Positions 28 to 810 of a stretch of 853 nt of DNA are shown here, piece after piece. Positions within the stretch are counted from its first letter, which is position 1. The number at the start of each line of letters is the position of its first letter. The notes below the pieces were generated by a model. It saw nothing but the letters and a program-made list of their open reading frames with translations. It did not search any database and had not been told where the DNA came from. The position numbers and the translations under genes were made by a program. Location: sequence record AB218930.1; one strand, given 5' to 3'. The stretch comes from a phage.

Positions 28-28
28 G

Positions 29-79
29 CTTCACTTAGCGAATGCATTAGCCTTAATCAACCAACGCCTGAAAAGGTAA
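29..79 (+). CDS. Probable 3'-terminal fragment of the maturation (A) protein gene, 5'-truncated at the cloning junction; reads ...LHLANALALINQRLKR*
   Basis: Open frame from the insert boundary ending at TAA 77-79, 16 nt upstream of the coat AUG. In ssRNA phages the maturation gene ends just upstream of the coat gene. The fragment is too short for me to confirm homology from sequence alone. Confidence 0.4.
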   Translation, partial: LHLANALALINQRLKR

Positions 80-83
80 TTAC

Positions 84-87
84 GGAG
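84..87 (+). promoter_or_regulatory. Shine-Dalgarno element (GGAG) for the coat gene
   Basis: GGAG lies 8 nt upstream of the ATG at 96. A possible small hairpin (85-105: GAGUU...AACUU) would place the AUG in or near its loop, as at the MS2 coat initiation site. The hairpin is a by-eye pairing, not a computed fold. Confidence 0.5.
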
Positions 88-95
88 TTAGCTAT

Positions 96-488
96 ATGGC
101 AACTTTACGCAGTTTCGTACTCGTCGATAATGGCGGTACGGGGAATGTTACTGTCGTTCCTGTTAGCAATGCCAACGGCGTCGCTGAGTGGCTTTCTAAT
201 AACTCGCGCAGTCAAGCTTATCGCGTGACTGCCAGTTATCGTGCGTCAGGCGCGGACAAGCGCAAATACACCATCAAACTTGAAGTACCGAAAATCGTTA
301 CTCAAGTTGTAAACGGTGTTGAGCTGCCTGTTTCCGCATGGAAGGCTTACGCCTCTATTGACCTGACCATCCCGATCTTTGCTGCAACCGACGATGTGAC
401 TGTTATTTCCAAGTCACTCGCCGGCCTGTTCAAAGTTGGGAACCCTATCGCTGATGCTATCTCTTCTCAGAGTGGCTTCTACGCGTAA
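96..488 (+). CDS. cp: ssRNA phage (Levivirus, GA-like / genogroup II) capsid coat protein, complete, 130 codons
   Basis: The translation MATLRSFVLVDNGGTGNVTVVPVSNANGVAEWLSNNSRSQAYRVTASYRASGADKRKYTIKLEVPKIVTQVVNGVELPVSAWKAYASIDLTIPIFAATDDVTVISKSLAGLFKVGNPIADAISSQSGFYA aligns along its full length with the MS2 coat protein as I recall it (FVLVDNGGTG, ANGVAEW, NSRSQAY, RKYTIK.EVPK, GVELPV.AW, LTIPIF, GNPI). It is closest to my recollection of the phage GA coat. The length is typical (~129 aa) and a GGAG RBS is present. Confidence 0.95.
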   Translation: MATLRSFVLVDNGGTGNVTVVPVSNANGVAEWLSNNSRSQAYRVTASYRASGADKRKYTIKLEVPKIVTQVVNGVELPVSAWKAYASIDLTIPIFAATDDVTVISKSLAGLFKVGNPIADAISSQSGFYA

Positions 489-679
489 TGGGTCTGAAAG
501 CAAAACATAAGGAAAACCTATGTTCCGATTCACAGAGATCGAAAAGGCTCTATGTATGGATCGCACTCGCGATTGTGCTGTCCGATTTCACGTCTATCTT
601 CAGTCACTGGATTTGGGGTCTTCTGATCCTCATTCTCCGGACTTTGATGGACTTGCCTACCTTCGTGATGAATGTTTAA
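488..679 (+). CDS. L: ssRNA phage lysis protein (L), 63 aa, single transmembrane helix
   Basis: The ATG at 488-490 shares its A with the coat stop codon TAA 486-488 (UAAUG). The product has a basic N-terminal region (KAKHKENLCSDSQRSKR) followed by a hydrophobic segment (LYVWIALAIVLSDFTSIFSHWIWGLLILIL), resembling the MS2 L protein segment LYVLIFLAIFLSKFTNQLL. Position, size and +1-frame overlap with the replicase start fit levivirus genome organisation. Confidence 0.85.
   Translation: MGLKAKHKENLCSDSQRSKRLYVWIALAIVLSDFTSIFSHWIWGLLILILRTLMDLPTFVMNV
504..524 (+). promoter_or_regulatory. Translational operator hairpin (coat-protein binding site) enclosing the replicase start codon
   Basis: AACAUAAGGAAAACCUAUGUU folds by eye into a stem 504-512 / 517-524 with one bulged A (509 or 510), a 4-nt loop AAAA (513-516), and the replicase AUG (520-522) in the 3' arm. 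This has the same architecture as the MS2 operator ACAUGAGGAUUACCCAUGU. The AGGA at 510-513 doubles as the replicase Shine-Dalgarno element. Confidence 0.75.
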
Positions 680-810
680 CCAAACATCCCTCACTTGGAG
701 ACAGTAATTCGGATGCACGCCGTAAGGAATTGGCATGTGCCAAACTTATGGATAGTGATCAAAGATGCAAAATCCAAAACAGTAACGGATACGACTACTC
801 TCATATCGAG
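520..810 (+). CDS. rep: RNA-dependent RNA polymerase (replicase beta subunit), N-terminal 97 codons only; 3'-truncated at the PacI cloning junction
   Basis: The translation MFRFTEIEKALCMDRTRDCAVRFHVYLQSLDLGSSDPHSPDFDGLAYLRDECLTKHPSLGDSNSDARRKELACAKLMDSDQRCKIQNSNGYDYSHIE matches the N-terminal region of the MS2 replicase as I recall it (GSGDPHSDDF..AYLRDELLTKHPTLG). The AUG sits in the operator hairpin, and the frame stays open to the end of the window with no stop. Confidence 0.9.

Follow-up and report, generated by a model that had tools for sequence, protein, structure and literature searches.

The record AB218930.1 comprises 853 nt, the whole of which was analysed and is called the window here. 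It consists of a phage insert of 783 nt (positions 28–810) with polylinker on both flanks. The features located along it were as follows.

1–27, no strand assigned: cloning-vector polylinker, with SacI at 4, KpnI at 10, SmaI at 14 and AscI at 20 (restriction-site scan)
28–810, plus strand: cDNA insert of a group II levivirus (Emesvirus japonicum), equivalent to GA X03869 nt 1257–2039 (megablast)
28–79, plus strand: 3′ end of the maturation-protein gene, with the stop TAA at 77–79 (mapped from the GA CDS 136–1308)
96–488, plus strand: coat protein gene, 130 codons (ORF; Pfam Levi_coat 1.6e-38; PDB 1GAV/1UNA 3e-79)
454–478, plus strand: stem-loop annotated in GA as a potential lysis-gene control (GA misc_feature 1683–1707)
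488–679, plus strand: lysis gene, 63 codons, running in another frame across the operator (ORF; Pfam Phage_MS2_lysis 3.3e-07; GA annotation)
504–524, plus strand: near-certain replicase translational operator hairpin, annotated in GA as a potential coat-protein binding site (folds, GA misc_feature, partial Rfam match, covariation)
508–513, plus strand: Shine-Dalgarno sequence UAAGGA of the replicase gene, within the 5′ arm, the bulge and the first loop base of the hairpin
520–810, plus strand: replicase beta-subunit gene, first 97 codons, truncated by the cloning site (Pfam RNA_replicase_B 8.5e-22; the GA CDS start 1749 is window 520)
811–853, no strand assigned: cloning-vector polylinker, with PacI at 811, XbaI at 820, SalI at 826, PmeI at 833, PstI at 841 and SphI at 847 (restriction-site scan)

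The presence of polylinker at both 1–27 and 811–853 indicates that the record is a cDNA subclone made by AscI–PacI insertion. No phage homology was found before base 28 by megablast, and comparison of the 3′-end polylinker with a plasmid collection gave no match. The order of the sites is presumably that of the pUC19-derived vector pNEB193 read in the EcoRI-to-HindIII direction, antisense to the vector lac promoter. Over its full length, the insert was 97.3% identical to BZ13 DL20, 96.9% to DL10, 96.7% to GA, 91% to T72 and 89% to KU1, all of which are Emesvirus japonicum. Counted over the 783 positions, this amounts to 26 substitutions relative to GA and 21 relative to BZ13 DL20; window coordinates are converted to those of GA X03869 with an offset of 1229. 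Substitutions at six positions (93, 455, 547, 607, 681 and 737) were absent from GA, DL20 and DL10, and could be either strain variation or RT-PCR/cloning errors. Among them, C93T, three bases ahead of the coat AUG (−3), destroys a CATATG (NdeI) site found in the relatives, and the changes at 547 and 737 give replicase T10A and Y73C, respectively. Base 455 is T in the window only, being A in GA and DL10 and C in DL20. The predicted energy of the stem-loop at 454–478 was −8.8 kcal/mol in the window versus −12.6 kcal/mol in GA, and it is A455T that makes this stem-loop weaker than its GA counterpart.

The coat, lysis and replicase genes follow one another in the expected order, and every gene reads along the plus strand. 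The coat stop codon and the lysis start codon overlap at 486–490 as UAAUG, and the same arrangement was found in GA, DL20 and DL10. T72 and KU1 carry an 18-nt insertion at the coat/lysis junction instead, with the lysis start farther downstream.

A preliminary description of this DNA had placed a coat-binding replicase operator hairpin at 504–524, with a bulged-A stem and with the replicase AUG and an AGGA Shine-Dalgarno sequence inside the structure, and had proposed fold prediction of the 41 nt around it as a check. The sequence of 504–524 is AACAUAAGGAAAACCUAUGUU, also given as AACATAAGGAAAACCTATGTT. Folding of this 21-mer with RNAfold gave the minimum free energy (MFE) structure ((((((.((....)))))))) at −4.2 kcal/mol (z = −2.43), and 5 of 200 shuffled sequences folded equally well. 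The same hairpin was present in the MFE structures of the 41-nt context, the 71-nt context, contexts ranging from 60 to 400 nt and the whole 783-nt insert, and the pair probabilities of the operator core were 0.94–0.995. The fold check thus bore out the hairpin in the 21-mer and in every context used.

With the A of the replicase ATG (520) numbered +1, the lower stem has 6 bp and joins 504–509 to 519–524, that is, −16 to −11 with −1 to +5. The upper stem is a 2-bp GG/CC helix joining 511–512 to 517–518 (G-9 and G-8 with C-3 and C-2). The AAAA loop occupies 513–516 (−7 to −4), so that A516 stands at −4 and a purine, A513, at −7. The bulged-A stem was also recovered: A510 (−10), two base pairs beneath the loop, is unpaired in the MFE structure. 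The position of the bulge is nevertheless ambiguous because the −11/−1 pair is A–U, and leaving either A510 or A509 unpaired gave an equal energy of −4.2 kcal/mol (pair probabilities 0.51/0.48). The replicase AUG at 520–522 was found in the 3′ arm, downstream of the coat gene at 96–488, and AGGA at 510–513 on the 5′ side, in agreement with the preliminary description. A longer match to the anti-Shine-Dalgarno sequence, UAAGGA at 508–513, lies 6 nt ahead of the AUG; UAAGGA is complementary to the anti-Shine-Dalgarno sequence of E. coli. The reverse complement of 504–524 also folds, at −5.1 kcal/mol. Given the low stability of the hairpin, and a reverse strand that folds no less well, the operator cannot be identified by folding energy alone, and the reality of the hairpin rests on its position, conservation and covariation, not on energy.

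Chance controls used a motif that required at least 4 bp in the lower stem, followed by an unpaired purine, two further pairs and a loop of four bases in which −7 is a purine and −4 is A. When both strands of the window were searched, this operator motif occurred exactly once, and the minus strand was without any. Among 2000 dinucleotide shuffles of the insert, 1.7% contained the motif with a 6-bp lower stem and 0.4% contained it with ATG at +1. A chance hairpin was rejected on uniqueness, position and covariation. A function on the minus strand was rejected as well: hairpins fold on both strands, but the motif is found only on the plus strand, which carries all the genes. Rfam was searched at a permissive E-value. 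The MS2 operator family RF02359 matched at 503–523 with 18.1 bits (E = 0.12), over model positions 16–36 only, and picked the operator site and no other in the window. Since 18.1 bits is below the RF02359 gathering score of 40, the operator is not a formal member of this MS2-seeded family. Rfam matches to the snoRNAs ceN109 and snoR31 were set aside as chance hits because the DNA is phage cDNA.

The position of the hairpin coincides with an existing annotation. GenBank X03869 labels GA nt 1733–1753, which are window 504–524, as 'pot. stem loop structure; pot. binding site coat protein', and this record from the 1980s also lists both hairpin arms as an imperfect inverted repeat. This exact agreement with the GA feature, together with the Levi_coat gene upstream, upholds the core of the earlier reading, and the operator is that of a GA-type levivirus. 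The operator 21-mer was identical to the GA site (21/21) and was found unchanged in 13/13 other group II sequences. The group II set includes GA, BZ13 DL20, DL10 and T72, KU1, the IMG/VR sequences L010–L013 (L012 apparently duplicates the GA genome) and the metagenome contigs L015 and L016. These sequences are up to 11% divergent overall, and the 18-nt insertion of T72, KU1 and similar contigs lies just upstream of the invariant 21-mer. The operator region codes in two frames, lysis and replicase, and this could alone explain its invariance within group II.

Operators of other relatives were compared at the homologous position.

MS2, M12 and FrSaffron: ACAUGAGGAUUACCCAUGU, loop AUUA
AVE017: ACGUGAGGAAAACCCAUGU, loop AAAA
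L018: core as in GA, loop AAAA
L020: ACAUGAGGAAAACCCAUGU, loop AAAA
L017: ...GGAAUACC..., loop AAUA
L022: ...GUAUAAAC..., loop AUAA

For 7 distinct four-base-loop Emesvirus operators, 89% of cells paired in the aligned register, compared with 14–62% in slid registers. Three pairs showed double-sided changes, namely G–C to A–U at −11/−1, G–C to U–A at −8/−3 and A–U to U–A at −16/+5. The covariation score was reached by 2 of 500 shuffles, a figure drawn from a small sample (n = 7 operators). The unpaired A, A-7 and A-4 were invariant in 7/7 of these operators. As far as a comparison of seven sequences can indicate, the covariation argues against conservation from overlapping reading frames alone. 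A further replicase-start hairpin, at about 1601–1625 of L019 (OGVH01000181.1; ACAUGAGUAAAAUACCAUGU), departs from the four-base-loop scheme and can be drawn with a 3-bp upper stem and a 3-nt AAA loop, or with a 2-bp upper stem and a 5-nt loop. The coat protein of L019 is 71% identical to that of the window, with Ser87 and Glu89.

The operator of MS2/R17 (group I, Emesvirus zinderi) resembles that of the window in its AUG-bearing lower stem, the unpaired A at −10, the GG/CC upper stem, the four-base loop whose positions −7 and −4 are A, and the Shine-Dalgarno sequence in the 5′ arm, and presumably works by the same mechanism. The preliminary description had reduced the difference between the two to the loop, AAAA instead of AUUA, with A in place of U at −5. 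The substitution at −5 stands: the window has A515 there and lacks the pyrimidine, whereas MS2, FrSaffron and M12 have U. However, the account was incomplete, because the loops differ at −6 too, with A514 for the U of MS2, and the window has A–U for G–C at −11/−1. An extra A–U pair at −16/+5 is also present in the window. The window operator is predicted to be less stable than that of MS2 (−4.2 versus −6.0 kcal/mol). AVE017, L018 and L020 are like the window in the AAAA loop, the unpaired A, the GG/CC upper stem and coat Ser87. AVE017 and L020 differ in having the MS2-type G–C at −11/−1, and their coats are 63–73% identical to that of the window.

The coat protein encoded at 96–488 was examined in relation to loop position −5. 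It is 98–99% identical to GA/BZ13 coats and 61% identical to that of MS2, with matches to 1GAV and 1UNA, the solved structures of the GA capsid and dimer. It has T59, V79 and D120 (mature numbering; ORF codons 60, 80 and 121) where X03869 has A, G and E, respectively. The coat positions compared with MS2 are ones that we take to be RNA-contact residues in MS2 complexes. The window coat shares V29, T45, S47, R49, K57, T59, K61, E63, Y85 and T91 with MS2, and has R43, K55, S87 and D89 versus K43, N55, N87 and E89 in MS2. Tight binding by the MS2/R17 coat requires a pyrimidine at −5. According to what is reported of the work of Gott, Wilhelm and Uhlenbeck (NAR 1991), the GA coat needs a paired stem, an unpaired purine, A-4 and a purine at −7. 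It is also said to be indifferent to which of the two unpaired-purine positions is used, and reportedly has no strong pyrimidine preference at −5. The earlier proposal of relaxed −5 specificity in GA-type coats is correct and textbook knowledge; it is in line with the window protein, in which Ser87 replaces Asn87, and with the occurrence of both A and U at −5 in Ser87 lineages.

The combination of A at −5 with Ser87 was found in four lineages (the GA group, AVE017, L018 and L020). Among the relatives examined, Asn87 was seen in the MS2 group alone, in each case together with U at −5. In L017, U at −5 is combined with Ser87, as expected under relaxed −5 specificity. A at −5 was seen with Asp87 once, in L022 (Ga0255252_1001044). 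In the L022 operator, at about 1619–1639, the upper stem is GU/AC and the loop AUAA, and the coat of this phage has Ile85, Asp87 and Thr89. Judged from these residues, L022 is a putative different solution at the −5 contact. In L020 (OGVH01003227.1), the coat gene lies at 811–1197 and the operator at about 1258–1278, and the coat is 73% identical to that of MS2 and 63% to that of GA. It has Ser87 and the AAAA loop, yet the −11/−1 pair is the MS2-type G–C. By this mixture of characters, L020 is a candidate for a naturally occurring intermediate that links the coat/operator pairs of groups I and II. Because A at −5 with Ser87 occurs in at least four lineages and the pairing of Asn87 with U at −5 in group I alone, relaxed −5 specificity may be ancestral or common. 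The strict pyrimidine requirement of MS2 would then be derived, and L020 would be the counterpart of the engineered MS2 N87S protein; we put this forward tentatively and lean somewhat against it.

The Ser87/−5 pattern fits the crystallography catalogued in PMC10610835, which covers the MS2 N87S and N87A proteins and also operators in which −5 is A or G. In MS2, GA and PRR1, binding depends critically on the unpaired purine and on the A four nucleotides 5′ of the start codon (PMC3561173). The binding requirements of the GA coat were measured by Gott et al. 1991, going by the citation of that work in PMC3561173. Quantitative data comparing binding by the GA and MS2 coats were not found in the open literature.

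These observations leave little doubt that 504–524 is the replicase translational operator of a GA/BZ13-type group II RNA coliphage, present here in a cDNA clone. The fold, the position, the identity with the GA site, the invariance, the compensatory changes and the contact residues come from this analysis, and binding, repression and packaging would carry over from the GA/MS2 literature. In the plus-strand RNA, the 21 nt would form a weak hairpin enclosing both the AUG and the Shine-Dalgarno sequence of the replicase gene. As coat protein accumulates late in infection, a dimer of the protein encoded at 96–488 would bind this hairpin, recognising presumably the unpaired A of the stem and two loop bases, the −4 A and the −7 purine. 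Binding would stabilise a hairpin that is otherwise too weak against ribosomes, so that ribosome access would be blocked and replicase synthesis turned off. The same coat–hairpin complex probably also nucleates or marks encapsidation of the RNA. The AAAA loop is the usual one for the GA type and accompanies a Ser87 coat that does not require a pyrimidine at −5. As the window is plasmid DNA, the element can act only if the plus strand is transcribed.

The same complex could have another primary role, the hairpin serving mainly as a signal that initiates capsid assembly or packaging. An operator complex has been suggested as the initiator of specific encapsidation (PMC3561173), and in the virions of MS2 and Qbeta the capsid is contacted by stem-loops resembling the operator (PMC10610835). 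However, the hairpin is placed over the Shine-Dalgarno sequence and AUG in every relative examined, which would be needless for a pure packaging signal, and the operator-like motif is single in the 783-nt stretch. Packaging and repression are moreover compatible with each other, and a mainly packaging role appears very improbable beside translational control of the replicase.

Two further explanations would deprive the hairpin of a function, and we give hardly any credence to either of them. The stem-loop might be incidental, its conservation coming from two overlapping frames and a ribosome binding site, with pairing that does nothing. The hairpin does lie inside the lysis ORF (488–679), with 520–524 also inside the replicase ORF, and its folding energy is modest, being equalled by 5 of 200 shuffles. 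In MS2-type relatives, however, the lysis frame and the sequences differ and the fold is kept through double changes at −11/−1 and −8/−3. The invariance of the unpaired purine, A-4 and A-7 in 7/7 aligned four-base-loop operators also speaks against functionless pairing, as does GA binding and reporter work that is already published. Alternatively, 504–524 might be an inert passenger in a plasmid subclone kept for sequencing, as a standard or as an expression intermediate, so that the hairpin never forms as RNA. Polylinker flanks the insert on both sides and the replicase gene ends after 97 codons, and the orientation in the presumed pNEB193-like polylinker, antisense to the lac promoter, was counted in favor of such a passenger. 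These points bear on the context of the clone and not on the identity of the element, and the vector backbone lies outside the window. 

This operator is already known: it was annotated with the GA genome, characterised in 1991 and used as a part in synthetic biology and tethering. All 21 nt are identical to the phage GA operator (X03869 1733–1753), and the position relative to the coat stop, the lysis start and the replicase AUG is the same. The GA coat protein (GCP) and the GA-wt hairpin, a pair used in synthetic biology, belong to the same protein family and hairpin type as those of the window, and the two together repress reporters in E. coli (Katz et al., bioRxiv 10.1101/168625). In that study, native and mutant sites were tested with the GA, MS2, PP7 and Qbeta coat proteins, and crosstalk between the MS2 and GA coat proteins was reported (Katz et al., 10.1101/168625). 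The GA coat also acts on the MS2-wt, MS2-U(-5)G and MS2-U(-5)C sites, and the orthogonal trio consists of GA with PP7 and Qbeta, the only two coats to which GA was reported to be orthogonal (Katz et al., 10.1101/174888). The preliminary description had presented the coat and hairpin as an orthogonal tethering pair. With respect to MS2 this was overstated, since published reporter assays show the GA coat acting on MS2 sites; a relaxed requirement at −5 adds to the promiscuity of the GA protein and not to its orthogonality. In practice, the GA coat and its hairpin should not be assumed to be orthogonal to the MS2 system. The discovery value of the site is small, and its use is as a calibration point, a functional RNA element of 21 nt having been located to the exact annotated base from sequence alone.

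Beside the operator, folding of the whole insert predicted a long-range pairing between two short segments.

191–196, plus strand: GCUUUC, in coat codons 32–34, predicted partner of 496–501 (whole-insert fold, P = 0.99)
496–501, plus strand: GAAAGC (−24 to −19), directly 5′ of the operator, predicted partner of 191–196 (whole-insert fold)

The homologous long-range pairing was predicted in GA (0.91) and KU1 (0.98). A best-helix search over a modest space found the homologous place to be complementary, with different sequences, in GA, KU1, T72, L020 and MS2. In MS2, UGAAUGG is complementary to CCAUUCA (7 bp), and in L020, UGGAUUUC is complementary to GAAAUCCA (8 bp). We take the MS2 pairing to be the known long-range interaction that couples replicase translation to the passage of ribosomes through the coat gene. 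The predicted helix 191–196/496–501 is suggestive of a group II counterpart of the MS2 coat–replicase coupling helix, which would form a second layer of control at the replicase start.
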